64,000 nt of DNA. It comes from Candidatus Microgenomates bacterium (GTDB taxonomy: Bacteria > Patescibacteriota > Microgenomatia > UBA1400 > UBA12108). A program made the translations under genes and the position numbers. Below the pieces are notes generated by a model. That model had not been told where the DNA came from, made no database searches, and saw only the letters and a list, made by a program, of their open reading frames with translations. Shown here in pieces: positions 5,308-54,190 of this stretch (position 1 is its first letter; each line of letters starts with the position of its first letter). The stretch lies in assembly GCA_003576945.1 (NCBI GenBank), contig QEVC01000002.1, positions 5,792-69,791 of the forward strand, given 5' to 3'.

Positions 5308-6339
5308 TCATTTTTTTGTAAAGTCAAAGTAATTTGGATATACCTCGATCTTATCAAATCCTCTTAAGGGCATAAAATCCAAATCAATTACACTATGTGG
5401 AGTCATTTGAGCTAGATCATATTGCGAAGGAGATAGTATCCTAGTATGAAACCCATTATCACCTTTGCGCTCTAATACTCCAACACCCACCCAATGTTTA
5501 GCAACCGAAGTATAAGTACTCCCAATACCGATTGAGTCTTCTTTTGGTAAAGTTGAAAGTATTACCCCGCGACCAAACTTGTCGTTAACAAGTATGTCCT
5601 GAGTAACAGCATACTCATAAAGAACTGCTCTTTTAACTAACCTAATTTTTTGATCATCGGTCGTTTCATGCCAAGGCTCAACTCCATTCCATTTAATATT
5701 TAACCAAGCTCTTCTAATATAGTCTGTTTGCTTTGCTTGATTCCACGAATAAAACCTCTCCTCAGCGTAGGTCATAGCTTTTTGTATCTCTTCTTCATAT
5801 TTAGATCTAGTTCTACCGTCTAGTTCAGTCAGTATATTGATTTTAAAATTATCTGGTAAGTAACGACTAAAGATACTTAGAATTTCCGAAAATCCTACTC
5901 TGTAGGTATCTACTTCTTCTTGCGATAAGTTATTGTGAAGTTGTGGGAGTATAGTTAAAAAATAGTAAGACAAATCAACACCTTGTTTGTATGTAGCGAC
6001 AATCGGTGATAAATACGCAGCTAGATAGACTATATTAAAAAATTCTGCCCAGTTTGGCATAGGTGAAGACTCAACGCGCCATAACTTATAGCATCCTTGA
6101 GCAAAAAATACTCTAATCGGTCGGCACTCCTTGATCGCGTTCGATACCTCTTTATCTACCAATGCCCTACACTCTTCCTCTATACGCCACTTACGATATT
6201 TTTTTGAAAATAATTTTGATTTAATATACTCTTCTAGTCCTACTTTTTTTAGTAAATTTATATCATCCTTACTAGGAATGTAGTTACCACTCTTATGCAA
6301 GAGATCTCTTAGGTAATTATTAGTCAATCCATCTCTCAT
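5308..6339 (-). CDS. hypothetical protein, no recognisable domain
   Basis: 343 aa. Co-directional and tightly spaced with 4711-5292. Immediately 3' of a tRNA-like gene. Confidence 0.4.
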   Translation of the reverse strand: MRDGLTNNYLRDLLHKSGNYIPSKDDINLLKKVGLEEYIKSKLFSKKYRKWRIEEECRALVDKEVSNAIKECRPIRVFFAQGCYKLWRVESSPMPNWAEFFNIVYLAAYLSPIVATYKQGVDLSYYFLTILPQLHNNLSQEEVDTYRVGFSEILSIFSRYLPDNFKINILTELDGRTRSKYEEEIQKAMTYAEERFYSWNQAKQTDYIRRAWLNIKWNGVEPWHETTDDQKIRLVKRAVLYEYAVTQDILVNDKFGRGVILSTLPKEDSIGIGSTYTSVAKHWVGVGVLERKGDNGFHTRILSPSQYDLAQMTPHSVIDLDFMPLRGFDKIEVYPNYFDFTKK

Positions 6340-6344
6340 ATTTG

Positions 6345-6418
6345 AGATGCGAGAAGGATTCGAACCTCCGTCTTTTCGTTTTACAACGAAATGCCTGAAC
6401 CAACTCGGCTATCGCATC
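6345..6418 (-). tRNA. atypical tRNA-like gene (GUA anticodon = Tyr-like, short variable arm, 8-nt anticodon loop or 6-bp stem)
   Basis: Reverse complement gives a perfect 7-bp acceptor stem (GATGCGA/TCGCATC) and T-arm GGAGG-TTCGAAT-CCTTC. The anticodon arm is an 18-nt perfect hairpin TTTCGTTGTAAAACGAAA, one nt longer than canonical. No encoded CCA. Confidence 0.6.
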
Positions 6419-6451
6419 GATTTACACATATTATACTCATTAAAGTGAAAA

Positions 6452-7051
6452 TTATGACACTGCCCTTCTAGTAAGCAGCGCCTGGTGTAATGTAACTTCG
6501 TCGGCATATTCTATCTCAACTCCTGTTGGGAGTCCACGCCCAATCCGTGTAATTATCACATCACATCCATCCAATGCTTGTTTTATGTATAGCGCAGTCG
6601 CCTCCCCCTCCAAGCTCGTATTAGTCGAAAGTATTACCTCTTTTACCCCTCCGCTCTTCACCCGTTTAATTAAGGTGTCAATAAAGAGTTCCTCTGGTCC
6701 CACGTTATTTAGCGGGGAGATTGAGCCATGGAGTACATGATATAGCCCTTTGTAACTCCCTGATTTCTCGAGTGCAATCACATCCTGAAAAGACTCAACC
6801 ACACAAACCAGTGAATTATCTCTAGACTGATCGCTACAAACAGTACACTGATCACTATCAGTTAAGTTGTGGCATATCGTACATAACTTTGTTTGCTTTT
6901 TGAGATTAGTGAGACTCATCCCAAACATCTCGAGGTCTCTCTGAGGCATCCGCAGTAGATAAAAAGCGAGCCGTAGCGCACTGCGCCTACCGATCCCAGG
7001 CAGTTTCTCAAAACTGGATGCTACATCCTCTACAATCTTCGGTAATTTCAT
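6452..7051 (-). CDS. recR: recombination protein RecR
   Basis: HhH 'LPGIGRRSALRLAFYLL', C4 zinc finger 'CTICHNLTDSDQCTVCSD', Toprim region. Start trimmed to an internal Met. Confidence 0.9.
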   Translation of the reverse strand: MKLPKIVEDVASSFEKLPGIGRRSALRLAFYLLRMPQRDLEMFGMSLTNLKKQTKLCTICHNLTDSDQCTVCSDQSRDNSLVCVVESFQDVIALEKSGSYKGLYHVLHGSISPLNNVGPEELFIDTLIKRVKSGGVKEVILSTNTSLEGEATALYIKQALDGCDVIITRIGRGLPTGVEIEYADEVTLHQALLTRRAVS

Positions 7052-7061
7052 CGCAAAAGCT

Positions 7062-7373
7062 CTACTGAGGTTGTCCCCCACCCATTCCACCAAGTAGACC
7101 CTTGAGGCCACCACTCATTTCCTGCAGTTTTTTGGCCGCAATCTGCTGAGATTTCTTGATGGCATCGTTTAGGACTTTAACTAGTCTCTCTTCATATTTA
7201 CCATCGATTGTCACAGTCTGGACTTTTTGATCTGCTGTCATGACTACTCTTATCCCATCTTCCTCAACCTCAATCACTTCTGCTTGCAACTGCTTCTGCA
7301 TCTGTACTGCTTGGTCTCTAATTTGTTTCAATTGTGAAACTTGGCTACCCATCTGTTTAAACTTATCAAACAT
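7062..7373 (-). CDS. ybaB: nucleoid-associated protein YbaB/EbfC
   Basis: 103 aa with a Gly-rich tail; conserved dnaX-ybaB-recR order. Confidence 0.9.
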   Translation of the reverse strand: MFDKFKQMGSQVSQLKQIRDQAVQMQKQLQAEVIEVEEDGIRVVMTADQKVQTVTIDGKYEERLVKVLNDAIKKSQQIAAKKLQEMSGGLKGLLGGMGGGQPQ

Positions 7374-7382
7374 AATTTCCTC

Positions 7383-8618
7383 CTAACTAAATATTGCTAT
7401 TGCTTCATCTATTGTATCATCCGCGTCACTTTTCTTATCCACAACTATCTTCTTTCCCTCCAAAAACTGTGCTTTCATCTGCATCCAGGGTGATTTTAAT
7501 TCTTCTGTGCCCTGCATTTTGACACTGCCACTTTCCATCTTAATATCTACATCTTTAATCGTCTGTTTAGTTGACTTACTCCCATTTTGATTACCAGACC
7601 TGCCGAATTGCTGATTATCACTTATCTGTCCCCAATCAATAATCACCATCTCAAGCAGTAATTCTGGCACTGGACTAATTGCCACCTTTCTCGCAACATC
7701 ATCTAGATTAAACACCAGTTTAATTAACTCTTTACTCTCACCCGCTAGAACGTGGTTTCTCAGTTCCTTCATCAAGGTCACAATTAAATAAACTAGGTCC
7801 ACCCCACGTGAACTAGCAAGATGCAGTTCGTCTAAGGCCACTTGACTATTTCGCTCAATTAACGCTTTTGTAAGAGCAGCAACGCTGTATCCCGAAACCC
7901 CCATTATTGCTTCTTCCATCTGAGCAAGCTCCACCTGATCTGTCTGCGACAACACTTTGTCCAAAATCTTCACTCCATCTCTAAACGAACCATCGACACT
8001 CCGTGCCAGGTAATCTAGTGCCTCCTCACTTACCCTCTTTCCTTCCCCACTTATAACTCTGGCAAAACTGCGCTTCATCTCATCTGGGGTTGCCTTCATA
8101 AATCCAACACTCACGCATCGACTCTGGATTGTCTCTGGCACCTTGTGGGCCTCTGTCGTACATAGGATAAAGATCGCGTGAGCTGGTGGCTCCTCCAAGG
8201 TCTTAAGAAGCGCATTAAATGCCTCAGTCGTCAGCATGTGCACTTCGTCAATGATATAGACCTTATATTTAAGCTCAGCTGGTGCCAATCTTATTTTCTC
8301 TTTTAGTTCTCGGATATCATCAATTCCGCGGTTACTGGCCGCATCAATCTCAATAAAATCTAAGCTCCCACCCGAGAGTATAGATTTACACGCTGAGCAT
8401 TCGTTGCACGGTTCCCCCAACTTTGTCTCGTTCTTCTCACAATTTACGATTCTCGACAATATTCTGGCCGAACTGGTCTTGCCTGCACCTCGTGGACCCG
8501 TAAATAAATATGCATGAGCCACTTCATTCGATTTAATTAGTTTGTAAAATGCCTCACGCACGCTGGTTAGATCAAGTTCTTCAACTTTCTTGGGACGATA
8601 TTTAAGATACAAACTCAT
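7383..8618 (-). CDS. dnaX: DNA polymerase III subunit gamma/tau (short form)
   Basis: Walker A 'GPRGAGKTSSARIL' and zinc module 'CNECSACKSI'. Confidence 0.9.
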   Translation of the reverse strand: MSLYLKYRPKKVEELDLTSVREAFYKLIKSNEVAHAYLFTGPRGAGKTSSARILSRIVNCEKNETKLGEPCNECSACKSILSGGSLDFIEIDAASNRGIDDIRELKEKIRLAPAELKYKVYIIDEVHMLTTEAFNALLKTLEEPPAHAIFILCTTEAHKVPETIQSRCVSVGFMKATPDEMKRSFARVISGEGKRVSEEALDYLARSVDGSFRDGVKILDKVLSQTDQVELAQMEEAIMGVSGYSVAALTKALIERNSQVALDELHLASSRGVDLVYLIVTLMKELRNHVLAGESKELIKLVFNLDDVARKVAISPVPELLLEMVIIDWGQISDNQQFGRSGNQNGSKSTKQTIKDVDIKMESGSVKMQGTEELKSPWMQMKAQFLEGKKIVVDKKSDADDTIDEAIAIFS

Positions 8619-9820: not shown

Positions 9821-10666
9821 TTAAAACACCTCCTTAACCAGCTCCACTACCTCATCTATTCCAAGGTGAGTAGGCTCTTTGGGACTCGATTTGTCCGACC
9901 CATTAAGTAGCATCTGACAAGATGGATGCAAAAACCATTGGTCAGGTCTATCGTGCTCTAGTATTTTATCATAAAGTACTGTTAGATCGATATTTTTCTC
10001 TGGCACCGCTTTAATCCGCATGTGGCCATAATCCGGATGTTTCAGTATAACAAGCGAATATCCTTGCTTCTGCGCGATCTTAATCGCCTCACTATTAGCC
10101 GACAACATCGCGATTCCTCGCCCCTTCTCCCAACTAAACTCAACACCCATTTTTATCTCTTCCTCTGCTTTTACTACCTGTTTAAGCCTCTGATAGACCC
10201 CATCTAAGTAAATAAAAACGTAGCGAGCCACCGCCTCATTATCCATAACTTGTAGGGTATGTAAGGATGGAATTACCTCGTGGAGTGTATAAGAGTAGCG
10301 GGTAGCCATGGGTTCATCCCAACCAGAATCCTCAAATCGATCAATCGCAAGCGAAAATTCTACCATCTGGCGAATCGCGGTATCACTTGGTGCTACTAAT
10401 CCTTGTGCTACTAAATGTTCATACACGAGCTTGGCCGCACACGTCTCATAGCCACCAGGTAGGTGGTGGTCAAATCGCCCATATCCCACATCCACATGTA
10501 TTACGTCAGGGTCAGTGTCTACCGGGAGGTTTTTATAAGTTGTGCTAGCAGGGACAAACTCTAGGTGAGCATCGCCATAGTGAGACTGATCAAACCTAAC
10601 TAAGAGCCAGAGTGAGGTAATAGCATCTAGATCTGGGTTTTTGTGGGTGACTAGTGTCTTGGCCAT
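9821..10666 (-). CDS. DHH-family phosphoesterase (nanoRNase-like, short)
   Basis: 'HKNPDLDAITS' and 'FDHH' motifs; 281 aa, apparently lacking a full DHHA1 domain. Confidence 0.55.
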   Translation of the reverse strand: MAKTLVTHKNPDLDAITSLWLLVRFDQSHYGDAHLEFVPASTTYKNLPVDTDPDVIHVDVGYGRFDHHLPGGYETCAAKLVYEHLVAQGLVAPSDTAIRQMVEFSLAIDRFEDSGWDEPMATRYSYTLHEVIPSLHTLQVMDNEAVARYVFIYLDGVYQRLKQVVKAEEEIKMGVEFSWEKGRGIAMLSANSEAIKIAQKQGYSLVILKHPDYGHMRIKAVPEKNIDLTVLYDKILEHDRPDQWFLHPSCQMLLNGSDKSSPKEPTHLGIDEVVELVKEVF

Positions 10667-10694
10667 ACACTCATTCTACAACTCAGCACGTGTC

Positions 10695-10723
10695 TTGACT
10701 ACCGCCAAGCAATGTCCTATAAT
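10695..10723 (+). promoter_or_regulatory. consensus sigma70-type promoter (TTGACT-N17-TATAAT)
   Basis: TTGACT at 10695-10700, 17-nt spacer, TATAAT at 10718-10723. A leader of about 160 nt precedes the ATG at 10886. Confidence 0.45.
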
Positions 10724-10885
10724 ACTATGAATGTTCACGCCTAGTGAGGTATCTGCCAATTATCATGTTCAAGGATATAACGACTTTGAACGTGCTCCAG
10801 ATAAAAAACAATTCTCTGGGGAGGATGTCAGGCATCTGTTCTACTCTTTTTAATAAGATCATTTACTAATAATACAAACCTATCC

Positions 10886-11556
10886 ATGTTAGATATTGCT
10901 AATATGGCTGAAAAAAGTGGTGTAGGATTTTTTGACTTAGAGTATGCAACCAAAATCTCTTATGCAGCTATATACACAATAGCCAACCTCGCACTACCCA
11001 ACCATAGAGTTGACTTTTATCATACTGCAGCCTACGAAGAAATAAGGGCCCAAAAACCCACAAACTACTTTGGGATAGAGGCGAGGAAAGTGTACTTAGA
11101 TATGAACGGAAAACAGACGACCCACTACGGAGCTAATGAATATTCTCAAGCTGCCTCAATATCAAAAACTCTTAGAAATGGAGGAGCCGCCATCCCACTG
11201 CTAGATGCTAATACTTTATATGGCAATAAAAAAAGAAAGGAATATTAAAATTAGCTGATAAAAATTCTAGTCACAAAGGAAAAGCTTCTCCACTTCATGT
11301 AGTAGCACTCACAGGATTAACCGAATCAGGAGATATATCTGTAGTTGATCCTGAGCCAGGATACTCAAATACACCAATACTTGCGTTGCTGGATTCATTA
11401 AATATGCTCCGTATCAAATCTGGTAAATTAACTTATGATCAAGCTCAAGAGTACGCCAAAAAATATCACCCATATCATTCAGTTTACTATAGCCTTCCTA
11501 CTACAACAATAATCGATGCACTTCGCTGGTGCACGATCACAATCAATCCGAGATAG
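10886..11556 (+). pseudogene. papain/C39-like peptidase-like gene interrupted by a -1 frameshift in an A7 run
   Basis: Frame 2 ORF ends at 11248. Frame 1 continues from about 11230 to the TAG at 11554-11556, encoding 'HVVALTGLTESGDISVVDPEPG' (C39_2-like His/Asp region). The break maps to aaaaaaa at 11230-11236. Confidence 0.4.
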
Positions 11557-20250: not shown

Positions 20251-21351
20251 TTACCTCACCACCTCGCAAACCAGCATCTCCCCCGGCGCCACCTGTCCCG
20301 GTATTCGCTTAGCATCAGACAAAAATACCTGGAAACGATTGATATAAGGATAAAGTAAAAAGATACTCATCGCCGCCATTCTAATTCTCGCTTCGTATAA
20401 CTCCAAAAACATCTCCGTAAAAATCTCTCGGTAAGACTGTCCTGCGATATATTTCGCATGAAATGCCTTTGGTACCCATATCCTACCATTCCCTTTGGTA
20501 AAACTCGCAAACTTGTCTTGCAATTGCTCAATCTCAAAATCTAGGTGCCAGACGTAAGAGTTAGCTGCCATCACCCAGGCACTCCTTACAATCAGGGCGT
20601 TTAAGAGAATGTGCACGTCTTCCTCTAGGGCGTTATTCGCAATTCCCGATTCATAAGAGCGATCTCCAATCCGATCTCTCCCCACGTGCATCTTATCTGC
20701 CGCAACCAGTGCCCACTGTAAGGGTATTCCAGAACTCAGGTTGACTGAGAGATCAACGAGCATTGGCTCCTCATGAAAGAGTATTGTATAAAGCACACTC
20801 CGCCACTCCTTTTGGTGTATCTCTGTATTGCCAAAGAGACGGGATAGTAGCCACGCCGAATACATCGAGTGACTCTTACGGTCTACCAAGTTGCCAAGGT
20901 CATGCGTCATCCCAACTAGGGTTAGCAGGACTTCGCTCTGACTATCATATAAATCTTCGCCGTTTTTATAGCTCCTCCCTGCGCGCGATAGCAGCTCGAC
21001 CGCCGTTTGGGTCACCCAGAGAGTATGTCGATCCGTATGATCATTAAATCCATGTGGCAGTTCGCGGTCCAGTACTGGCCCTACATAATTCCAAACTTTC
21101 CCCAATCCAGAATATAAATAAGATAAAGCTTCGCCCTTCCCCGATAAATGTAAAAACTCGCCAAAATCAAATAATCGCTTTACCCTCGGCACTTTATGGT
21201 TAGTTAAAAAGGGAAAGTCTTCTTTTTTATAATCAATCCCTGCCGAGTTAAAGTACTCCCATAGTCCCTGCCCGTCCGCCCGACGCATTTCATCACTCCC
21301 CAAGAATGGCGAGTTAATGTCTATTGACCATTTTGGAGTTGCCTGCATCAT
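20251..21351 (-). CDS. HD-domain phosphohydrolase-like protein
   Basis: 'HTDRHTLWV...LVGMTHDLGN' H...HD pattern. Last gene of a four-gene minus-strand cluster. Confidence 0.5.
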   Translation of the reverse strand: MMQATPKWSIDINSPFLGSDEMRRADGQGLWEYFNSAGIDYKKEDFPFLTNHKVPRVKRLFDFGEFLHLSGKGEALSYLYSGLGKVWNYVGPVLDRELPHGFNDHTDRHTLWVTQTAVELLSRAGRSYKNGEDLYDSQSEVLLTLVGMTHDLGNLVDRKSHSMYSAWLLSRLFGNTEIHQKEWRSVLYTILFHEEPMLVDLSVNLSSGIPLQWALVAADKMHVGRDRIGDRSYESGIANNALEEDVHILLNALIVRSAWVMAANSYVWHLDFEIEQLQDKFASFTKGNGRIWVPKAFHAKYIAGQSYREIFTEMFLELYEARIRMAAMSIFLLYPYINRFQVFLSDAKRIPGQVAPGEMLVCEVVR

Positions 21352-21401
21352 ACCCTATACATTTTACACATTAGTCCTATACACATTAACTATCCCCAAG
21401 C

Positions 21402-22439
21402 TTAGATTTGTAACATGGTGGCATTTTTTGGCTGCCGTGTAATATCAAAACCATTTGTCGTCCCAGGAGATGGATGTGTATTAGCAAAAAGCAGTAGAGC
21501 TCCAAAAAGCTTATAACTCCCACCTTCTGCTATCAATTTTATTGCCTTTAACTCATCTACTTCTCCGACTTCTGGTAGCTGTAACGAGATATCTATATTG
21601 TGATGTCGACAGAAAAATACAAGGTCTTCCATCCTACCTAGACCAGCTCTGCCATCGAAGACTTCGTAAGCTTCTTTCTCACTCATTCCAATCTCTTTAC
21701 TCCTTGCAACATGTTCGTCAAAAAACATTTTTCGCAGAACTTTGTCACTAAGCGGGTGAACATCCATAGTTAAACCCGCTGTCTCTCGGCCTGTAAATAC
21801 TTTGATAGTTGGTGGAACATATAAATCATTTTGTTTATGTACTGATGTTCGAACCGAAAAACGAGCACGAGTCAAACCGATTGTTGCGTCGACTGCTCTC
21901 GTAGCCTTTCTTCCCGCTGATCCATATTCCTTATCGCAATACGAATCTATTTCGTTTCTCATCTCGCTTGCAGTCATTTCTTTTGTTGGTTTTGAAAAAT
22001 GAAAATTGAGCACTCTTCTCCAGCTACCAACGCTCTCACCTATTTCATTCAGCCATATTTCTCTTGCCGCAACGTCTGTTGCTATAGTCCCAAATTCACC
22101 GCCATTTTCAACAATACTCAAAAACAGATCAGGAACTATACTATGTCTCTCTTCATCTATAGCCATCTCCCACATTTTCATAACTTGGTCGGAAGCCTTT
22201 TTTGTAATCAAGTCTGGAGTGCCGATCATCGCATCTTCTTCGACTACACTGATCGGTAAGTGTAGAACTCTATCCATGTATCCACCACTAAACGCAATTG
22301 TAAAATCAGCAAAATGTTTATTAATCAGAATAGACAAGTTATTAAGAAGAACTTCAAACTTCCATCTCGTACTCGTAATAATACAAGGATTCTTAAAAAA
22401 CACTTCGGTGGCTGTCAGTCCTGATTCAGCTAGAGTCAT
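21402..22439 (-). CDS. hypothetical protein
   Basis: Start trimmed to 'MTLAESG'; the longer track ORF would run through a hairpin/U-tract. No domain recognised. Confidence 0.4.
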   Translation of the reverse strand: MTLAESGLTATEVFFKNPCIITSTRWKFEVLLNNLSILINKHFADFTIAFSGGYMDRVLHLPISVVEEDAMIGTPDLITKKASDQVMKMWEMAIDEERHSIVPDLFLSIVENGGEFGTIATDVAAREIWLNEIGESVGSWRRVLNFHFSKPTKEMTASEMRNEIDSYCDKEYGSAGRKATRAVDATIGLTRARFSVRTSVHKQNDLYVPPTIKVFTGRETAGLTMDVHPLSDKVLRKMFFDEHVARSKEIGMSEKEAYEVFDGRAGLGRMEDLVFFCRHHNIDISLQLPEVGEVDELKAIKLIAEGGSYKLFGALLLFANTHPSPGTTNGFDITRQPKNATMLQI

Positions 22440-22448
22440 AGACAAAAA

Positions 22449-22466
22449 ATCCCGCTTACGCGGGAT
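22449..22466 (-). terminator. GNRA-loop hairpin (AUCCCGC-GUAA-GCGGGAU) + U6, ending 9 nt before the start codon of 21402-22439
   Basis: Read on the minus strand. Paralogous to the hairpin at 23471-23486. Confidence 0.5.
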
Positions 22467-22668
22467 AACCTCTCCATTGTGTAATGGCAAGAATACTACA
22501 AAGATAGTATTGACTAGGCTTTAATACCAAAAAAGCCCCCTTCTGATGTTTGGTTTCCATCCCATCCTATCGGGATTGCTGTTACTTGAATCAAAAGCGA
22601 GACTTGTCTCACTTCGAATTTAATCTAATTTACACAACTGTTACGCACGATCAATATATCAAAATATA

Positions 22669-23463
22669 TCATTTAACAAGTTCTCGATGTTTCTTAACCA
22701 CCCCTATTGCTCCAGCTACTAATCCAGGTGCAACTCCTCTTAGATAAGGATAGGCCATGATACTCGCTTCCCTCCCACTCTCTCTATCATCTACTTTTAT
22801 GGTTCTTCTTCCGTCACTCACTATCAACTCTTCTCTTCTTGTCCCACTAATTTCCTTACCTATTTCTCCCCAGATTCTAAACAATTGATCAAATCTCAAT
22901 CCTAAGTTTGAATCTGGAATCACGAGGCCAGTTTCAATCCACCCCTTATCTTGAGCCGCAGTTATTGCATCACCACTAGAAAGCCAACGAACAAAACTAT
23001 GAGGGACATTAATCGATAGGTTACGCCATCCGACCCATGTTGGATAGTCATATTCAATTAGTTCTGTAGTCAGTATATTGCTTACTACCAGGTCAAGTGC
23101 TCCTCCAACATTTTGAAAAAAAGACGTTAAATGGTTCCATGGATCACCCTTTGGCTTATTAAGCTGAACGCCTAAGGCCCTTATAGTTACGTCGAGACTC
23201 GTCCATGCCCAGGTATGAGTATCTGCCAATTTATCAAACGCTCCTGATTCGAGCAAGGGTATTTTCTGTGCTTCCTTTTTCCCTAGTCCCAATGATCTAT
23301 TATCTGTTCCAATCGGCTCAACTACATCAGGAACTTTGAGCCAGCCCCGTTTATGTTCAAAGAGCTCAGGTGCTTGAAAATATTTTGCTGCCTTATGCGC
23401 CATCTTTGTAGCTAGGGCTATCGCGAGAGGACGCTTTGACGATAATATTTGCTCTTTACCCAT
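22669..23463 (-). CDS. hypothetical protein
   Basis: Start taken at 'MGKEQILSS', immediately after the hairpin/U7. No domain recognised. Confidence 0.4.
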   Translation of the reverse strand: MGKEQILSSKRPLAIALATKMAHKAAKYFQAPELFEHKRGWLKVPDVVEPIGTDNRSLGLGKKEAQKIPLLESGAFDKLADTHTWAWTSLDVTIRALGVQLNKPKGDPWNHLTSFFQNVGGALDLVVSNILTTELIEYDYPTWVGWRNLSINVPHSFVRWLSSGDAITAAQDKGWIETGLVIPDSNLGLRFDQLFRIWGEIGKEISGTRREELIVSDGRRTIKVDDRESGREASIMAYPYLRGVAPGLVAGAIGVVKKHRELVK

Positions 23464-23470
23464 AAAAAAA

Positions 23471-23486
23471 TCCCGCTCTCGCGGGA
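23471..23486 (-). terminator. GNRA-loop hairpin (UCCCGC-GAGA-GCGGGA) + U7 directly abutting the AUG of 22669-23463
   Basis: Minus-strand read GGGUCCCGCGAGAGCGGGAUUUUUUUAUG. Intrinsic-terminator architecture with no leader. Confidence 0.5.
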
Positions 23487-23595
23487 CCCTCAATAATAAA
23501 GGAATACCTCATTTTAAGAGGATTTTGTACAAAAAAACCGATGTGCTCCTTTTTGCTCATCGGGAGTTAAGTATACACAATTGGTACACACTAAG

Positions 23596-24357
23596 TCAAC
23601 GGGGATAAGCATAATATTGCGATGCTTCCCTGGCATAAACCACCACATCTCTATATCTCTTCTGGGCTCCGCATTGTGCTTCAGGAACTTTTGGCATCTT
23701 ACTCTCGGCCTTTTGGATAGACTCATAAATCGGTGGTGTTATTTTTCTATCATTTAGTTTGCCACGCAAAGATTTTAATTTCATTTTGCGCTCTTTTTCA
23801 AAAACCCGTGCCATAACATCAATACTTGTATTTGGTGCAGCTCTCAATACTCTGTCTGGCCAATTCAAAACATTCTTATCTTTCACAGCCGATGCATTAG
23901 CTTTGGGATCAAATTCAGGATAAATTTTGGCTATACCATCAATAATACCCATAAAGCCAGAAATTAAGTTGCCCTCAGAAACGCCCAACTTATTACTCTT
24001 ATCTAAGTACCCAAGACCAACCCTCATCCCCAAAAACCATATCACATCACCACCTTCGCTTGAAGCACTAATAGGATTTAACTTAAGCACTTCACCATTT
24101 AAGATCGGAACCTCTTCACTCAACTCTTGCATTTCATCAATTGCGGAGTTAATTAGTGTAGCCGAGTTTCCTGCAAAATCACGCGCAAACATAACGTCGC
24201 GAGTTTTGAGCATTTCGATCTGGATACCCAGATAATGTGTCAAAATAGGATGTTCACCAAGCATTCCAGGCCTATCTTCAACTATTCTCTTAAGACTTTC
24301 ATACTTTCGTTTTAATTTTGGATGAATAGCGTCAAATGGCAACATACATCTATCCAC
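23596..24357 (-). CDS. hypothetical protein
   Basis: 253 aa; first gene of the cluster. No domain recognised. Confidence 0.4.
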   Translation of the reverse strand: MDRCMLPFDAIHPKLKRKYESLKRIVEDRPGMLGEHPILTHYLGIQIEMLKTRDVMFARDFAGNSATLINSAIDEMQELSEEVPILNGEVLKLNPISASSEGGDVIWFLGMRVGLGYLDKSNKLGVSEGNLISGFMGIIDGIAKIYPEFDPKANASAVKDKNVLNWPDRVLRAAPNTSIDVMARVFEKERKMKLKSLRGKLNDRKITPPIYESIQKAESKMPKVPEAQCGAQKRYRDVVVYAREASQYYAYPR

Positions 24358-24465
24358 TATATATAGGGTGAGGCATTATGGACAACCACTAAAAATACAT
24401 CACACTAGAACAATTATTATTTCAATGGGTTTCCAATAACGTTGGATAACAGTAAAAAGTGATTA

Positions 24466-27400
24466 TCAATCTCTCTTCATCATTGCTAATACTAGCGTGG
24501 TTCCAAGCAAAACAAAACCTAAATACTGCAATAATTGCGGCCAGTAAAAAATAATCACAATTCCGTTCCCCTCATTATTCATAATTCCTGATTCATTATT
24601 CACAACAAACCCATTTGCCCACCCATCCACTTTCAGATGTCTTAAACTTGCTACATGATACTTGATACTTGATACATTCAACCCCACCCATCCTTCATCA
24701 TACCCTTGACTCAGCCTGATAAGCCCATCACCTCGCACTCCCAACCCATACAACCAAGTCCCCGTCTTTTTTACATGTGTGATCCTAAGGTCTGATCTTG
24801 TAGGTTGCAAATCATTATCATAACCTACGAGGTCAGACCTTATAGGTACCAGCTTTGCCCTCACGATCTTCTCAATGGGTGCGTATCTAACCTCTACTTT
24901 ATCTACCCTATTCTCCGCATACTGCCCAAAACTGCGCGTCTCGATATTGAGGCTGTAGTGTCCATCCCAATCCCAAGGTAGTAGCGAGAATGTCTGATCA
25001 AACTTGCCCCTGTCCATCAGATATTCGATATCATTCCGTTCACTACCTGTATTGTAAAGAAAGAATTTGAGACTCCTACCAGCTTTATTTTCTCCCATTA
25101 CTCTCATTAGATGTGGTACACGGGTAAACGGCCCGCCCATGACTACGTAGTCACATACTGCACCTCTCCCGTCTGCCATATAGGTCGATCTTTCTTTCTC
25201 AGCGCTACCCCGCTTCAATACGTCACAATTTCCGATACTCCCCTGCCCTTGCCGGCCAAAGTCATAGATAAAGGCTTCTCCCATTATTTCTATACTTAAT
25301 TCATCATTCAAAATACTAAATACCTGTTCTCTCCTATATTCCTCCCATTCCTCTCCCTCACTCACTCTAGCGTAGAAATAGCTCTCCCCCTCTTTAGGCT
25401 TTTCCTCTCCCAAAAATCTCGGACCCTTTTCTCCGTTTATATAATATGCTGGCAACGCTTCATTATTAACAAAATCTACTCGAACGATCTCTCCCACCCC
25501 CCACCCCGGTATCACCAGCTCCCGTGATCCAAGGTCTGATCTTGTAGCGTTTACTCCTACGAGGTCAGACCTTAAAGTTATTCCTTTGTCTCCATACTCT
25601 ATATTTTTTATTTCCTCCCGCATCAGCTGCGCAAACGGATAAACTACTGTCCCCTGCGATTCAAGATCTGATCTTGTAGGTTGCAAGTCTTTCTCAAAAC
25701 CTACGAGGTCAGACCTTCCAGGTTGTTCCACATATGTTCCCATCTCCGCATAAATCACATCCTTTCTCGTTTTCAAAGTATCTCCCTCCACCCACATATA
25801 GCTCTCCGGCACCGTGATCCCAAGGTCTGATCTTGTAGGGTTTACTCCTACGAGGTCAGACCTTACAGGAATTTTCCAAACACTCAAAAAGTTCTCATTA
25901 AACACTCTCTCCCACCCTAGCTCTTGTGCCAGCTCTTTTGTCTCCTCTATTCGCAAAATATCTTTGTCCTGCCCCGGCGCAATCACGCTCTCATCTAGTA
26001 GCACATATCGCACGTCATACTTCTGCAAAACTTTTTGTACTTGCCCACTGCACCCTGCACCCTGCGCTCCAAGGTCTGATCTTGTAGGGTTTACTCCTAC
26101 GAGGTCAGGCCTTACAGGACAAGCATAAATTGCAGTCGCAAACTCGTTATAAAACCCCTCGTTATACGGACTCCACGCATAAAATGCCTTGTCTAGAATT
26201 GGCATATTTATCCCTTGCCATACAAACCCACTCCCCCTGTATCCCCACTCATTCAGCTCCCATCCCCAAAAATCCTGTTGCGGTAGTTGTAGCACTCTCC
26301 CCGATTCCACACTATCCATAAATCGAAACAACTCTTGATATTCACTCGGTAACTCTACCCGCAATTTATCGTAAAGCAACTCGCCACGAAAAACTGGAAA
26401 GCTCCACATAATCACCACTCCCACCAATCCAGCAGTGATTCCAAATCTAACCACCCCCCACTTCATCCATCCTAAAACCATCGTCAGTCCATATCCCATC
26501 ATCACAGCGAGACTCATCGCATAAACTAGTGAAAATTTCGTAAAAGCAAATCGGAATATCGCGTCATAATACGGCACATACTCCCTTAGTGTCCACCCCA
26601 CACTCGATACTATGGGGATTCTCAGTCCCAGGTTACACAAAGCGAACAACCACACTACTCCTATCGCCGCCACCCTCCACTCTCTCTTCCACATCGCCAT
26701 GACCCATCCCAACAAACCAGTTCCCACCACTCCCCATCCTATATAAAAAATCCACGCCTGCCCCCACCACTCTATCCACTGTGGCATCTGCAACCCAAAC
26801 TTTCCATCTCCTACATAATCTTCAAACGCTAGTGAGAATCCCTCCATCGCCACCACACTCCGAATGTCACCATATTCGGCGTTGCGCAGCACCACCTCAC
26901 TATTAGATAGTTGGCTCGATTTCGAGGCATTTATCCCTGCCGCACTCGTCATCGCCGAATAAATGTATGGCAGTCCCCAAAAAGCATTCACGGCAAATAG
27001 CACTACTACCACATTTCGCACTCGCTTCCACCCCACCCTCCAGTGTTTCATCCAATAGCTAACAATCAAAGTAAAAATGGTGAGACCGTACACAATAAAA
27101 ATGGTGGGCACGTGTGCTTGTGGGATCGCCAAAAAGTTAATGATCAGGAGTCGCCACAACTTCTTTCGCTCTGGTGCGTCAAAATAAGTCAGTAGTGCCC
27201 ATACTCCCCACGGCAGTGCCGCAAAGTGCATGACAAATAGCTCTAGCGGCTGATAAAACATCTGCACTGTATAGGGGTTCAGCATATAAAACAGTGCCGT
27301 AACTATTGCCACTCCCTGCCTCACTCTCTCCTGCTTACGCAGGATATACATGCTGAGAACATACATCCCCACGCCACCCATTAGGTGCATGAGTAGCACA

Positions 27401-27678
27401 TAAGCGTAACGAACATAGTTAGTAGGTAGTACGAGCGACAACAGCCACGCATACCCCACATGCACCAGGTTCGCCGCGTGCGCCATGGCATCCGTCATCC
27501 CTAGCCCCCGGTATTCTTGCCACACCGATGATAAATCACGCCACAAATGTGTCGAAAATGCCAGTTCTGGCTGTGTACTATCCCAGCCGATTAGCCACGT
27601 CCCAGTGCGGACATTCGCCCACACTATTCCCACTTCAACGAGAACTAATAAAAATACTCCCCACCACCGCTTGAGCAT
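24466..27678 (-). CDS. large polytopic membrane glycosyltransferase-like protein (GT-C/YfhO/ArnT-like N-terminus, soluble C-terminus) carrying five in-frame palindromic repeat units
   Basis: 1070 aa. About 14 predicted TM helices in the N-terminal ~430 aa. C-terminal part contains five copies of 'RSDLVG(xx)..PTRSDL'. Adjacent GT2 gene. Confidence 0.6.
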   Translation of the reverse strand: MLKRWWGVFLLVLVEVGIVWANVRTGTWLIGWDSTQPELAFSTHLWRDLSSVWQEYRGLGMTDAMAHAANLVHVGYAWLLSLVLPTNYVRYAYVLLMHLMGGVGMYVLSMYILRKQERVRQGVAIVTALFYMLNPYTVQMFYQPLELFVMHFAALPWGVWALLTYFDAPERKKLWRLLIINFLAIPQAHVPTIFIVYGLTIFTLIVSYWMKHWRVGWKRVRNVVVVLFAVNAFWGLPYIYSAMTSAAGINASKSSQLSNSEVVLRNAEYGDIRSVVAMEGFSLAFEDYVGDGKFGLQMPQWIEWWGQAWIFYIGWGVVGTGLLGWVMAMWKREWRVAAIGVVWLFALCNLGLRIPIVSSVGWTLREYVPYYDAIFRFAFTKFSLVYAMSLAVMMGYGLTMVLGWMKWGVVRFGITAGLVGVVIMWSFPVFRGELLYDKLRVELPSEYQELFRFMDSVESGRVLQLPQQDFWGWELNEWGYRGSGFVWQGINMPILDKAFYAWSPYNEGFYNEFATAIYACPVRPDLVGVNPTRSDLGAQGAGCSGQVQKVLQKYDVRYVLLDESVIAPGQDKDILRIEETKELAQELGWERVFNENFLSVWKIPVRSDLVGVNPTRSDLGITVPESYMWVEGDTLKTRKDVIYAEMGTYVEQPGRSDLVGFEKDLQPTRSDLESQGTVVYPFAQLMREEIKNIEYGDKGITLRSDLVGVNATRSDLGSRELVIPGWGVGEIVRVDFVNNEALPAYYINGEKGPRFLGEEKPKEGESYFYARVSEGEEWEEYRREQVFSILNDELSIEIMGEAFIYDFGRQGQGSIGNCDVLKRGSAEKERSTYMADGRGAVCDYVVMGGPFTRVPHLMRVMGENKAGRSLKFFLYNTGSERNDIEYLMDRGKFDQTFSLLPWDWDGHYSLNIETRSFGQYAENRVDKVEVRYAPIEKIVRAKLVPIRSDLVGYDNDLQPTRSDLRITHVKKTGTWLYGLGVRGDGLIRLSQGYDEGWVGLNVSSIKYHVASLRHLKVDGWANGFVVNNESGIMNNEGNGIVIIFYWPQLLQYLGFVLLGTTLVLAMMKRD
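24787..26113. repeat. five palindromic hairpin units (arms aggtctgatcttgtagg / cctacgaggtcagacct; spacers 7 or 19 nt) inside the 24466-27678 ORF
   Basis: Units at 24787-24842, 25531-25573, 25653-25708, 25822-25865, 26071-26113. Arms form a 17-bp stem with G-U pairs as RNA. All unit lengths keep the frame. Confidence 0.85.
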
Positions 27679-29296: not shown

Positions 29297-29576
29297 TTTT
29301 TAGGCTTCCTTTCAAGAGCCTAACCTGCATAGAAATTTTCTACACAAATAAGGCTCCTGAGGTGTAACCTACCCTCTACTCGAATCCATCTTTACCCTTC
29401 CGTTGCCCATCCCATCCTTGCAGATGGTTGCGGCGCCGGAGTTTTTTGTTCTCCCGATTTTCATCGGGGAACCCGTATGCCTTGTTAAAGAACTAGCCCG
29501 CCACATTTTGCCGTGAGGCAATATGGGCTGGGCTGCTCTCATCCCAAACTATTACTCGCAACGAGTAGGTTTGAGT

Positions 29577-29677
29577 CTCGAGCTCCTGCCTCTATTTCTA
29601 GTAGCAGGTAGCTGCCTACTGTTACCAATAGACAAATACCTAATACTTATCTCTTATTCACTATAGGATATCACACT
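29577..29677 (+). repeat. copy A of a ~100-bp direct-repeat module (tcgagctcctgcc...ctagtagcaggtagctgcctactgttaccaatagacaaatacctaatac..cactataggatatcacact)
   Basis: About 95% identical to 30407-30506. Ends at the ATG of the MNT gene and is promoter-like. Confidence 0.8.
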
Positions 29678-30022
29678 ATGTCAAATTATTTATGTTATAC
29701 TTGGGGCATGAAGACCAATCCCTTGAGTAAATACCAAGACAAGATCAGCGAGCTGGCACAAAAGCACCACATCTCTTATCTTGCCCTCTTTGGCTCTCAC
29801 GCCAGAGGCGAAGCTAAGCAAGATAGTGACATAGATCTTCTAGTCGATTTTAAGCGCACTCCCGATCTAATCGAACTTTATGATGCCGAACAAGATTATG
29901 CCCGATTACTCAAAAAAGACCTTGATTTTGTAACAGTCGGCGGGCTTAATAAATATATTAAACCTTATATCCTACCAGACTTAATTACACTCTATGGCAC
30001 AAGACCCACAAGTATTTCTTAA
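29678..30022 (+). CDS. nucleotidyltransferase (MNT/MntA-like antitoxin)
   Basis: 'LALFGSHARGEAKQDSDIDLLVDF' GSx10DxD NTase motif. Confidence 0.8.
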   Translation: MSNYLCYTWGMKTNPLSKYQDKISELAQKHHISYLALFGSHARGEAKQDSDIDLLVDFKRTPDLIELYDAEQDYARLLKKDLDFVTVGGLNKYIKPYILPDLITLYGTRPTSIS

Positions 30023-30332: not shown

Positions 30333-30406
30333 TATCCTACATTTATTTATTTGTTAAAGAACTGCTCAATTTTTCGGGTTTTACACGCAGTGTGCATACC
30401 CAAAAT

Positions 30407-30506
30407 CTCGAGCTCCTGCTTCTACCTCTAGTAGCAGGTAGCTGCCTACTGTTACCAATAGACAAATACCTAATACCCATCTCTTATTCACTATAGGATA
30501 TCACAC
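30407..30506 (+). repeat. copy B of the ~100-bp module
   Basis: Followed by a short terminator-bounded transcript unit (30507-30636) instead of the MNT-HEPN pair. Confidence 0.8.
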
Positions 30507-30597
30507 TGTGTCAAGCCGTAGGTCCTGAGCGGAGTCGAAGGGATTATAGAGTTATCTGACTCTCCCCTCTTTTGTATTAAACCAACCTCACTAAAGC

Positions 30598-50816: not shown

Positions 50817-51788
50817 ATGTCGCCTCTTATCTTTTTTGGCTCCGATCGTTTTAGTGCCGTCGTACTAAGTGAGCTAATCAGTCAAAATCACGCTCCAACA
50901 CTAGTAGTCACCGACCAACCAAAACCTGCCCGCAATACTTCGCATAGCGATGCAGGCGGGCCCAAAGGAAAGCAAGGTATTCTTAGTCCCAACGAAGTCG
51001 AAACTCTCGCCAAAACGCAAGACATAAAAATATTATATTATCAAGACAACAACGAAGAATTGATCAAATATATACAACATTCAAAATACAACATACAAAA
51101 TACCAATCTAACTGGCCTCTCTGCCTCTTTCCCCCACCTCTTCCCCGCCGACTTTATCAGTTTGTTTAGCGGTCATCTCTATAATCTCCACCCCTCCCTC
51201 CTCCCACAGTACCGCAATGTTGCACCAGGTCCTTACGCCATCATCATGGGCGATAAAGAGACCGGGATCACCCTCCAGCATATCGACGAGCGTATCGATA
51301 CTGGCAGTATCATCGCCCAGCAGTCAGCTCCCATTCATCCCTCCGATACCTCTACCACCCTCCTCAACCGACTTTTTACCAAGGGTGCTGAAATCTTTAT
51401 TCAGCATTTATCGGACGGATTTACGGATTTACGGATTAACAGATTTACGAATCAACTAATCTTTACCCGCAAGCTCACCCGCCAGTCTGGCTACATCGAG
51501 TGGGACATCGTCCAAAAGCTACTTCAAGGTCGGACCTTGAAGGTGGGTGACACAGTCAACCCCCTAATCCATCTCCGTCTCACCCATCATCCAGAGAGAA
51601 CAGAGAACATCCTCCCCGACCTAATCCGTGGCCTCAACCCATATGAGCGAGTCTGGACAGTAGCAAAAACCAAAAAAGGAGAACTCCAGCTCACACTATC
51701 CCTCTCACCCAACGGCGAAATTATGGTCCTAATCCCTGGCAAGCCAAAACCAATTCTCTATACTGATTTTGTAAAGTATTATCTCTAA
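50817..51788 (+). CDS. fmt: methionyl-tRNA formyltransferase
   Basis: 'NLHPSLLPQYRNVAPGPYAIIMGDKETGITLQHIDERIDTGSII'. The inter-domain linker carries the ACGGATTT tandem repeat (51412-51452) and the 21-bp palindrome (51522-51542). Confidence 0.8.
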   Translation: MSPLIFFGSDRFSAVVLSELISQNHAPTLVVTDQPKPARNTSHSDAGGPKGKQGILSPNEVETLAKTQDIKILYYQDNNEELIKYIQHSKYNIQNTNLTGLSASFPHLFPADFISLFSGHLYNLHPSLLPQYRNVAPGPYAIIMGDKETGITLQHIDERIDTGSIIAQQSAPIHPSDTSTTLLNRLFTKGAEIFIQHLSDGFTDLRINRFTNQLIFTRKLTRQSGYIEWDIVQKLLQGRTLKVGDTVNPLIHLRLTHHPERTENILPDLIRGLNPYERVWTVAKTKKGELQLTLSLSPNGEIMVLIPGKPKPILYTDFVKYYL

Positions 51789-54007: not shown

Positions 54008-54190
54008 TTACTTCCCCTTCACACTGCGCAGACACTTGGTACAGAGGCGTAGTCTAAGTCTGGCTTCGCCTAGCTGCATACGGTGGGTATGGAGGTTTGG
54101 TTTACGAACTCTTTGGGTGCGGTTTTTAGCATGGGAGACGTTGTGTCCTACATCACGCTTTTTACCACAAAAATCACACATGTTTGCCAT
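54008..54190 (-). CDS. rpmB: 50S ribosomal protein L28
   Basis: 'MANMCDFCGKKRDVGHNVSHAKNRTQRVRKPNLHTHR'. Confidence 0.85.
   Translation of the reverse strand: MANMCDFCGKKRDVGHNVSHAKNRTQRVRKPNLHTHRMQLGEARLRLRLCTKCLRSVKGK

Follow-up and report, generated by a model that had tools for sequence, protein, structure and literature searches.

In Escherichia coli, the terminator of the pyrBI operon is enclosed within a leader-peptide gene of 135 bp, and a ribosome that follows the polymerase closely suppresses it; in both pyrBI and pyrE, U-rich pause sites set the coupling of the ribosome to RNA polymerase (PMC4824070, citing Roland et al. 1988 for the former and further work for the latter). A hairpin is put to another use in T4 genes 38 and 25, where it reduces the spacing between the Shine-Dalgarno sequence (SD) and the AUG, with 22 nt becoming 5 nt and 27 nt becoming 11 nt (PMC3014915). 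Here we analyzed 64,000 nt of DNA from a Candidatus Microgenomates bacterium (GCA_003576945.1, contig QEVC01000002.1, positions 5,792 to 69,791 of the forward strand; hereafter the window), in which two near-identical GNRA-loop hairpins with U-tracts stand directly before the start codons of genes B and C, the second and third of four consecutive genes (A to D). To our knowledge, very little is known about gene regulation in the Candidate Phyla Radiation (CPR)/Patescibacteria. A sequence-only reading of the window had taken the four genes for a co-directional cluster punctuated by the two hairpins; its observation proved correct and its interpretation is partly supported. The locus is a core HD-like gene (D) beside a slot of variable genes, putatively for nucleotide hydrolases, each with its own conserved leader. 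We give an even chance to the reading that the hairpins are intrinsic-terminator-type attenuators within translated leader open reading frames (ORFs), which would control B and C as independently transcribed genes of a nucleotide-metabolism slot.

The sequence confirmed both hairpins at the positions originally flagged, 22449-22466 and 23471-23486, and the ORF listing placed all four genes on the minus strand. The spacing was also as described, with the stem before C ending 9 nt short of the ATG at 22439 and the hairpin before B, with its U7, abutting the ATG at 23463. Within the window the motif TCCCGC-N4-GCGGGA occurs exactly twice (22450-22465 and 23471-23486) compared to 0.08 occurrences expected, and 0 of 100 shuffles reached two. 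Both sites have the form of an intrinsic terminator (stems of 6-7 bp with 5 G-C pairs, a GNRA loop and U6 or U7), and folding gave -16.2 kcal/mol (z -3.7) for the C hairpin and -15.8 kcal/mol (z -4.4) for the B hairpin. Under strict criteria the window contains only three such strong sense-strand terminator-like hairpins, two of them joined to start codons. We compared these sites with related genomes or loci, labelled L008, L061 and so on, where L061_B or L063_C denotes the leader of the named gene. The B-type hairpin, U7 and AUG were found in every relative with the slot (L008-L019, L058 and L061). C-type and more distant leaders carried other stems, namely CCCUC/GAGGG in L061, CCCCUC/GAGGGG in L063 and L197, CCCCGC/GCGGGG in L022, GCGGUC/GACCGC in L196 and CGCGC/GCGCG in L043. 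A GC stem, a GNRA-type loop and U5-U8 are the design common to all related leaders, realized with five different stems, and the hairpin is conserved with covarying stem sequence in at least 15 of them. In a 10-leader alignment, 93% of cells were paired compared to 25-64% with slid partners, two pairs were changed on both sides, and 0 of 500 shuffles matched the observed pairing or covariation score.

This pattern of variation bears on the possibility that an RNA-binding protein recognizes the hairpins, or that processing by an RNase there frees an mRNA beginning at the AUG for leaderless translation. The near-invariance of the stem sequence among B-type leaders and the wide use of leaderless-type starts in this genome would suit such a role, but the C-type and distant leaders hold the structure while varying the stem sequence, which suggests that structure and not sequence is recognized, and no candidate protein co-occurs. 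We consider this explanation highly improbable.

Table 1. Features of the locus (window coordinates) and copies of the L2 RNA in related genomes (coordinates of the labelled genome or locus). uORF, upstream ORF.
Feature	Position	Strand	Remarks
Promoter-like site of A	24356-24385	-	TTGTCC, 18 nt, TATAGT; 10 nt upstream of ATG 24345
Gene A	23596-24345	-	249-aa orphan, MazG-like; from the ATG of public gene calls
B-unit promoter	23570-23599	-	TTGACT, 18 nt, (TGTG)TATACT; overlaps the A stop codon
P1 hairpin and first U7	23531-23563	-	CCGAUG..CAUCGG; holds the uORF1 AUG; -7.8 kcal/mol
uORF1	23456-23560	-	34 codons, MSKKEHIGFFVQNPLKMRYSFIIEGPARAGFFYG; begins 9 nt past the -10 box; UAA ends 8 nt into B
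P2 hairpin	23507-23521	-	CCUC-UUAAAAU-GAGG; covarying stems
B hairpin and U7	23464-23486	-	UCCCGC-GAGA-GCGGGA (23471-23486), U7 (23464-23470), then directly AUG 23463
Gene B	22669-23463	-	264-aa orphan, "B slot" family, possibly Maf-like core; from ATG
L2-unit promoter-like region	22615-22668	-	TTGATC, about 16 nt, TAAATT; sequence-level prediction
L2 RNA	22528-22614	-	87-nt structured RNA motif between B and C, riboswitch candidate; covariance model
C-leader uORF	22456-22530	-	24 codons, from UUG past the L2 SD to UAA in the GUAA loop; read from sequence
Mini-uORF of C	22436-22477	-	13 codons, MERLSRVSGIFCL; crosses the C hairpin; stop UGA overlaps the C AUG (AUGA)
C hairpin and U-rich tail	22440-22466	-	AUCCCGC-GUAA-GCGGGAU (22449-22466), UUUUUGUCU (22440-22448), then AUG; attenuator-type terminator hairpin
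Gene C	21402-22439	-	345-aa orphan, weak Maf/ITPase-like fold; from ATG
-10-like box of D	21361-21366	-	TAAAAT, 9 nt upstream of the D ATG; leaderless-type layout; read from sequence
Gene D	20251-21351	-	366 aa, HD-superfamily-like; core Patescibacteria gene, outside the variable unit
L2 copy, L013	5155-5240		
L2 copy, L018	7336-7422		
L2 copy, L019	7330-7416		
L2 copy, L024	7423-7508		
L2 copy, L025	7379-7462		
L2 copy, L027	6133-6224		
L2 copy, L043	464-557		
L2 copy, L045	7100-7184		
L2 copy, L058	4446-4531		
L2 copy, L061	1971-2058		

The whole spacer between A and B is kept as a module comprising a promoter, 9 nt, an invariant ATG, a hairpin with U7 (P1), a second hairpin (P2), the GC hairpin with U7 and the main AUG. 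The -10 box remains a good hexamer where it varies (TATACT or TACAAT only), the lower stem of P1 is invariant while its upper stem covaries (GC/GC, GUA/UAC, GGU/ACU), and P2 covaries likewise (CUUC/GAAG in L013, UUCUCU/AGAGAA in L058, GACC/GGUC in L018/L019). From the invariant ATG, uORF1 runs through P1 and its U7, P2, and then the B hairpin and its U7. All 9 B-type leaders keep the corresponding frame open (33-36 codons), both other frames are interrupted by 1-4 stops in every one of the 8 tabulated leaders, and the distance from the leader ATG to the main AUG is fixed at 97-98 nt despite internal indels. Stops of B-type leaders lie at +1 to +12 of the main AUG, with AUGA in L018 and L058 and a stop 5-7 nt into B in the window, and over all leaders (+1 to +20) the stop forms AUGA, lies 5-20 nt into the main gene, or falls inside the hairpin loop. 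The L063_C, L196_C and L197_263 leaders have the same layout as the B type. Overall, an ATG-started ORF passes through the hairpin in 13 of 15 hairpin-led genes, compared to 144 of 498 control genes (29%). In front of C, the mini-uORF has an 11-codon counterpart in L061_C, again with an AUGA overlap, and in L061 and L198 the UUG-started ORF associated with the L2 RNA (see below) reaches an AUGA overlap with the C homologue. A programmed frameshift at U7 joining the leader ORF to B was excluded, as the shift needed differs by lineage (97- versus 98-nt leaders).

Of the 57 genes of the window, 14 have a strong -10 hexamer whose end lies 6-9 nt upstream of the start, compared to about 1 expected, which suggests widespread leaderless mRNAs in this Microgenomates genome. 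Because the 9-nt spacing from -10 box to ATG is the layout of many genes here, the leader ORF would be translated from leaderless or nearly leaderless RNA.

The third hairpin that passed the strict criteria (UCCCUC-GAGA-GAGGGA-U5, 53957-53972, minus strand; site with 53934 and about 54010-54190) ends rpmB, the gene for L28, and escaped the motif count because its stem carries a compensatory change. A gene for a TrwB/VirD4-like coupling protein (51785-53977) follows, its ATG standing 9 nt past a -10 box (TATACT). As this copy stands at a gene end, the hairpin design is that of the terminators of this genome. The B and C hairpins could then be ordinary terminators or insulators of A, B or small leader RNAs, with the contact to the AUG a product of genome compactness and B and C expressed by rare, unregulated read-through; the pattern of hairpin and ATG is also common in compact viral genomes. 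However, A already has a hairpin and U7 of its own (P1), 35 nt past its stop codon, and the hairpin-AUG contact, the 97-98-nt leader, the open frame and the upstream promoter are kept while the flanking genes change. Moreover, a promoter separates the rpmB terminator from the next ATG, whereas none lies between the B and C hairpins and their AUGs. Ordinary terminators are therefore an unlikely explanation, and the hairpins are more than simple gene-end terminators, as the sequence-only reading had proposed; conserved, covarying and always joined to a start codon, they are best read as attenuator stems of the leaders in front of the variable genes.

It had further been argued that the contact between hairpin and start codon leaves no room for an SD or a promoter. 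For the promoter this stands: the main AUG adjoins the U-tract so closely that none would fit, and any mRNA of B or C must read through the hairpin. For the SD it overlooks that a short ORF crosses each hairpin and ends on the main AUG, and that 10 of the 13 leaders examined carry a purine tract (GGAG, GAGG or AAGGAGG) at 0-2 nt on the 5' side of the hairpin. This tract could form a split ribosome-binding site, with the purines (GAGGG, GGAGAGG) as the SD and the hairpin as a translation enhancer rather than a terminator, for which the T4 genes offer a precedent (PMC3014915). The tract is kept beside unrelated stems (GGAG-CGCGC in L043, AAGGAGGA-CCCCGC in L022, GGAGA-CCCCUC in L063), and a strong GGAGG type at 5-9 nt is normal for the SD-using genes of this genome. 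Yet it is absent in L018, L019, L061_B and L196_C, a spacer hairpin needs no U5-U8 tract although one is present in every case, and RNAalifold pairs the purine tract with the U-tract (G-U, A-U), which would hide it. A split site in place of a terminator thus appears to be a minor possibility, albeit one compatible with attenuation.

In the attenuator reading, the conserved promoter of the B unit would fire a nearly leaderless 34-codon ORF across P1 with its U7, P2, and the GC hairpin with its U7. RNA polymerase would get to B only if the ribosome translating the leader follows closely enough to block the terminator hairpin, with the U7 tracts as candidate pause sites; the conserved U7 past P1 lies 21-30 nt into the leader. 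The same ribosome, stopping on or beside the AUG of B, could re-initiate there, and with re-initiation at an overlapping stop and start no SD or promoter would be needed between hairpin and AUG. It seems that translation of the leader, and not the encoded peptide, is what matters. The C unit may follow the same logic, with upstream control provided by L2, the closing helix of which would sequester the SD of a short ORF running into the C hairpin. A split SD-hairpin-AUG site might contribute in addition.

Several observations weigh against this mechanism. The related leaders share ancestry, so that leader counts are not independent samples. The pattern CCCGC-GNRA-GCGGG-U6 followed by ATG is generic, with more than 120 matches in viral contigs. 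An upstream out-of-frame ORF reaching the start is found in 29% of ordinary genes, although mostly these are real upstream genes, and L043 and L197_263 have only non-ATG or differently placed uORFs. Variable sites in the leader ORFs are spread over the codon without positional bias (5 at position 1, 5 at position 2 and 7 at position 3), and the evidence for translation is therefore confined to the open frame and the start context. P1 would sequester the leader AUG and so hinder leaderless initiation. The fold and family assignments of B and C, described below, are below significance. Finally, pyrBI-type control raises expression at low uridine triphosphate (UTP), and such UTP sensing, were it to operate here, would have no obvious logic for a Maf-like hydrolase.

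We examined the RNA between B and C, which the sequence-only reading had passed over, with a covariance model (R1) built from six copies. In L2, the SD (GAAGGGGG) forms the 3' strand of a long closing helix; the motif also has an inner hairpin that covaries and conserved loops (UUCAAGUAACAGCA and GGAAACCAAA), and is followed by U6. Its copies have the SD AAGGAGG or GAAGGGGG, then a U-run, then UUG or AUG. The 5' strand of the closing helix can instead pair with an upstream segment as a small hairpin, and this alternative pairing would free or sequester the SD, a switch-like arrangement that makes L2 a riboswitch candidate. R1 gave 11 matches at E values from 1.7e-29 to 3.6e-5, including the distant L025, L027, L043 and L045, plus a partial match in L063 (E 0.3). 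TTGACG-N-TATAAT of L013 and the promoters of L018, L019, L024 and L058 could be aligned to the promoter-like region of the L2 unit. Pairing was present in 92.5% of cells compared to about 55% with slid partners, in an alignment fitted to the model, which favors pairing; 14 of 24 pairs had changed on both sides, and 0 of 500 shuffles matched the observed values. A free-standing small RNA is less likely, because every confident match has a same-strand ORF downstream. The genes behind L2 belong to the C family (window, L061, L197 and L198) or are a D paralogue in L027 (hidden Markov model (HMM) E 1e-20), an HD-like gene in L025 and other orphans. L2 thus combines a conserved covarying structure, a position 5' of same-strand genes and an expression platform, as cis-regulatory RNAs do, with ligand binding being putative. 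The L027 genome has two D-family genes (about 6257-7720 and 10001-11074), and the extra, 487-aa paralogue is the one preceded by L2. Searches of Rfam 15 at gathering and E<=10 thresholds returned only tRNAs and chance matches and no family for L2; among the latter, Trp_leader (E 1.7) was driven by the terminator alone. Likewise, 11 pattern matches to L2 in viral contigs were dismissed as chance, as R1 matched none of them.

The genes behind the leaders turn over rapidly: A, B and C are narrowly distributed, exchangeable genes of a variable slot. In genomes whose D is 97% identical (L008 and L011), A is 86% and 72% identical, C is absent, and the B position holds a 282-aa gene that is undetectable by tblastn and is only a remote member of the B family. 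Where D is 86% identical (L018 and L019), A, B and C are all undetectable by tblastn, and the slot is occupied by dNK, an A-like gene of 242 aa and further orphans. GCA_024434235.1 and GCA_021404865.1 encode D and A proteins identical to those of the window. Between L008 (6834-7682) and L010 (1150-1998), the B-slot gene is 53-72% identical while identity in the flanks is 100% (about 1.1 kb on the upstream side, more than 1 kb on the downstream side); the differences start 8 nt past the ATG and end 138 nt before the stop. Because the divergent tract is about 700 nt long, with a synonymous divergence (dS) of 1.5 and a ratio of nonsynonymous to synonymous divergence (dN/dS) of 0.13, the B-slot variants are old alleles moved by recombination and not products of local hypermutation. 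The same values excluded a diversity-generating retroelement or point-mutation hypervariation of B, and an integron attC-like site was excluded on its size and the absence of an integrase. In L018 (5498-6343) and L019 (5380-6351), homology is lost 8 nt past the same ATG, and the genes beyond are unrelated (281 versus 323 aa).

That two independent pairs (L010/L008 and L018/L019) break within 8 nt past the AUG could mean that the leader has no regulatory function and is instead a junction formed by recombination, marking the 5' limit of a gene cassette that can be exchanged. However, the 3' boundary lies inside the ORF, the locus has no integrase or repeated site, and the pattern is that expected from homologous recombination between conserved flanks; covarying hairpins and an open leader frame would also be left unexplained. 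We regard this as the least probable of the explanations weighed here.

To judge from motifs and predicted folds, all four genes probably encode nucleotide (pyro)phosphohydrolases, MazG-like for A, Maf/ITPase-like for B and C and of the HD type for D, a reading that fits the nucleotide and one-carbon genes of their neighborhoods (dNK/TK, thyA, folA, glyA, folD, tmk and ndk). The sequence-only reading had found no recognizable domains in A, B and C, and indeed none of the three matched Pfam, NCBIfam, PHROGs or PADLOC; the HD character it had given D is carried by invariant motifs and weak fold matches. The profile and structure searches it had suggested returned nothing significant in libraries for the four proteins, including PDB sequence-profile searches with the A, B, C and D families, which had no match, and yielded weak fold and motif hints. 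Gene A (253 aa, 23596-24357, if started from GTG) had 3 clusters in the protein search. Its family has invariant E71, E74, E97 and D100, which form EXXE..EXXD, and among seven relatives sub-threshold Pfam matches were to MazG in three (E 0.007) and to PRA-PH in two (E 0.0016). B had only 2 clusters among 5.8 billion proteins. A local HMM ties it to 268-284-aa genes behind the same leader in L005, L008, L010, L011, L013, L018, L058 and L061, and by the same approach most B-slot genes form one very divergent family. Against what we take to be the Bacillus subtilis Maf sequence, the B family gave a weak hhalign match (E 0.008), in which D91 of B falls on GADT and its L.KP on LGKP, the D and L.KP being invariant in B. 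C had only 10 representatives among 1.8 billion proteins. Its AlphaFold2 (AF2) model (mean predicted local distance difference test (pLDDT) 86.5) matched Maf/Ham1/RdgB in Foldseek with a probability of 0.9-0.97 (E 2.6e-3 to 1e-2) at template modelling (TM) scores of 0.27-0.35 when normalized to the query and 0.41-0.54 when normalized to the target; it also weakly matched a viral dITP/XTP pyrophosphatase, and hhalign of C against Maf gave E 0.21. Homology between B and C is unproven (hhalign E 0.2), though three invariant residues aligned. The longest ORFs of B and C extend to 23493 and 22490, respectively, and homologue alignments back the ATG starts of both.

D, in contrast to A, B and C, is core. 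Its homologues form more than 160 clusters, all at 53% identity or more, with the invariant motifs HGFNDHTDRH, MTHDLGN, LFHEE and AADKMHVGR and invariant HD metal-binding residues H105/H109, H150-D151, H193 and D219 (H..HD..H..D). The AF2 model is helical (pLDDT 85), and among PDB folds it best matches the C-terminal, HD-like region of Ppx/GppA, with E about 4e-3 despite a probability of 0.99. D thus has the H...HD...D motif and all-helical core of the HD phosphohydrolase superfamily, although no HD match was above threshold and that of Pfam HD was not reached. We conclude that D is an HD-superfamily protein of an uncharacterized family, its HD motif being the only secure assignment among the four proteins. 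Both D (dN/dS 0.02-0.03) and A (0.10-0.13) are real genes by their dN/dS, but only D is core. In 38 species genomes D occupies one of two fixed syntenies, glyA(<) D(>) folD rpsB tsf or argS M16 ndk D(>) PEGA(<) mreB, and it is also placed beside thyA.

These data bear directly on the proposal that A to D constitute a single module for nucleotide signalling or anti-phage defence. Nucleotide-hydrolase hints are present for all four proteins (notably the HD motifs of D, EXXE..EXXD of A and the weak Maf/ITPase fold of C), replacement of B-slot alleles is typical of loci under frequency-dependent selection, and a vapBC-like pair adjoins; the flanks are as originally described, with a MazE/AbrB-like gene and a PIN gene on one side and a family 2 glycosyltransferase (GT2) gene and the gene for a 1070-aa membrane protein on the other. 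The hints to nucleotide hydrolysis survive, but the module does not. No conserved co-occurrence or gene order was found in the D neighborhoods of 38 genomes and the contexts of A, B and C, and the latter genes are absent or replaced in genomes with D 86-97% identical. C homologues lie immediately upstream of glyA in L022, L061, L063 and L197, and L061 and L063 have no D at that place. Rather than forming an operon, each of the four genes has its own promoter-like element. As for defence, PADLOC gave chance-level Cas3-HD matches only (E about 0.03), PHROGs gave no match, and the D family was absent from IMG/VR viral contigs. D behaves as a housekeeping gene (dN/dS 0.02) and is conserved beside glyA/folD/thyA/rpsB or ndk/mreB across Patescibacteria, the very finding that the sequence-only reading had named as speaking against its cluster. 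A four-gene module is largely refuted by these synteny data and is, in our view, highly improbable.

Taken further, L2 could represent a new Patescibacteria riboswitch class that senses a nucleotide-derived metabolite. Together with leaderless attenuators, it would control exchangeable nucleotide-sanitizing hydrolases (MazG-, Maf/ITPase- and HD-like) that are swapped between strains at a fixed glyA/thyA hotspot and tuned to whichever unusual nucleotides the episymbiont acquires from the host or encounters in phages. We put this forward as a tentative proposal that is rather doubtful as a whole. Independently of it, the locus offers a candidate attenuator design in which a leaderless leader ORF crosses a terminator lying against the start codon under its control, a covarying RNA of 87 nt outside Rfam in front of putative nucleotide hydrolases, a recombination hotspot that exchanges deeply diverged alleles between otherwise identical strains, and a highly conserved, uncharacterized HD-like family with links to genes for thymidylate and one-carbon metabolism. 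Should the proteins prove to be hydrolases, the locus bears on nucleotide-pool cleaning by nucleotide-scavenging episymbionts.

Three further features of the window were noted. The gene for the 1070-aa GT-C-like membrane protein (24466-27678, minus strand) contains at least five in-frame copies of a 57-61-nt palindrome (AAGGTCTGATCTTGTAGG...CCTACGAGGTCAGACCTT) at 24787-24847, 25521-25577, 25663-25723, 25812-25868 and 26061-26117; translated as a repeated PTRSDLVG..NPTRSDLG, it looks like a miniature inverted-repeat transposable element (MITE) or repetitive extragenic palindrome (REP) tolerated in a coding region. A 109-nt direct repeat, 94% identical and 830 nt apart (29576-29684 and 30406-30514), lies in a region of HepT/MNT-like and HicA-like toxin-antitoxin genes. 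At 6344-6418 (minus strand), ARAGORN called a tRNA of undetermined identity with a four-base anticodon (gtaa), which Rfam scores as a normal tRNA (58 bits).

Compared to known systems, the predicted proteins resemble house-cleaning nucleoside triphosphate (NTP) pyrophosphatases (all-alpha MazG, Maf/ITPase) and HD phosphohydrolases in the motifs of A, B, C and D and in their nucleotide-gene neighbors, but A to D fall below every curated family threshold and C and B carry large extra regions. L2 is like SD-sequestering riboswitches in its aptamer-like core, its covarying helices, a closing helix with the SD as 3' strand, an upstream hairpin that would compete for the 5' strand, and its constant position 5' of same-strand genes. 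It differs in having no Rfam family, in a competing hairpin that lies upstream and not downstream of the core, and in the heterogeneity of the genes behind it (HD-like, C family and other orphans).

At the start codons themselves, the T4 gene 38 and 25 split sites likewise have an SD 22-27 nt from the AUG with a stable hairpin between; here 23-27 nt would be shortened to about 7-9 nt, but the purine tract is absent in four leaders whereas the U-tract and leader ORF are always present. As in translational coupling via overlapping stop and start codons (AUGA, UAAUG), the upstream ORF ends on the AUG or a few nucleotides from it with no accessible SD, although here that ORF is a leader of 11-41 codons with no conserved peptide and not a gene as in operons. 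The closest parallel is with the UTP-sensitive pyrBI and pyrE (rph-pyrE) attenuators of E. coli, in which the structural gene is immediately preceded by a rho-independent terminator within or at the end of a translated leader ORF, with U-rich tracts upstream of the terminator and in a nucleotide-metabolism setting. Read-through in pyrBI and pyrE depends on a ribosome behind the polymerase (PMC4824070), as we propose for this locus, where all 9 B-type leaders and also those of the C type have an ORF through or up to the hairpin, its translation being predicted. Unlike in pyrBI and pyrE, the leader ORF here begins at the predicted 5' end of the RNA in a leaderless layout, the main AUG adjoins the U-tract and is overlapped by the leader stop, and two hairpin and U7 units stand in tandem. 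The regulated genes are orphans, probably hydrolases, and do not belong to pyrimidine biosynthesis; the leaders would therefore work like pyrBI and pyrE rather than be members of that class.

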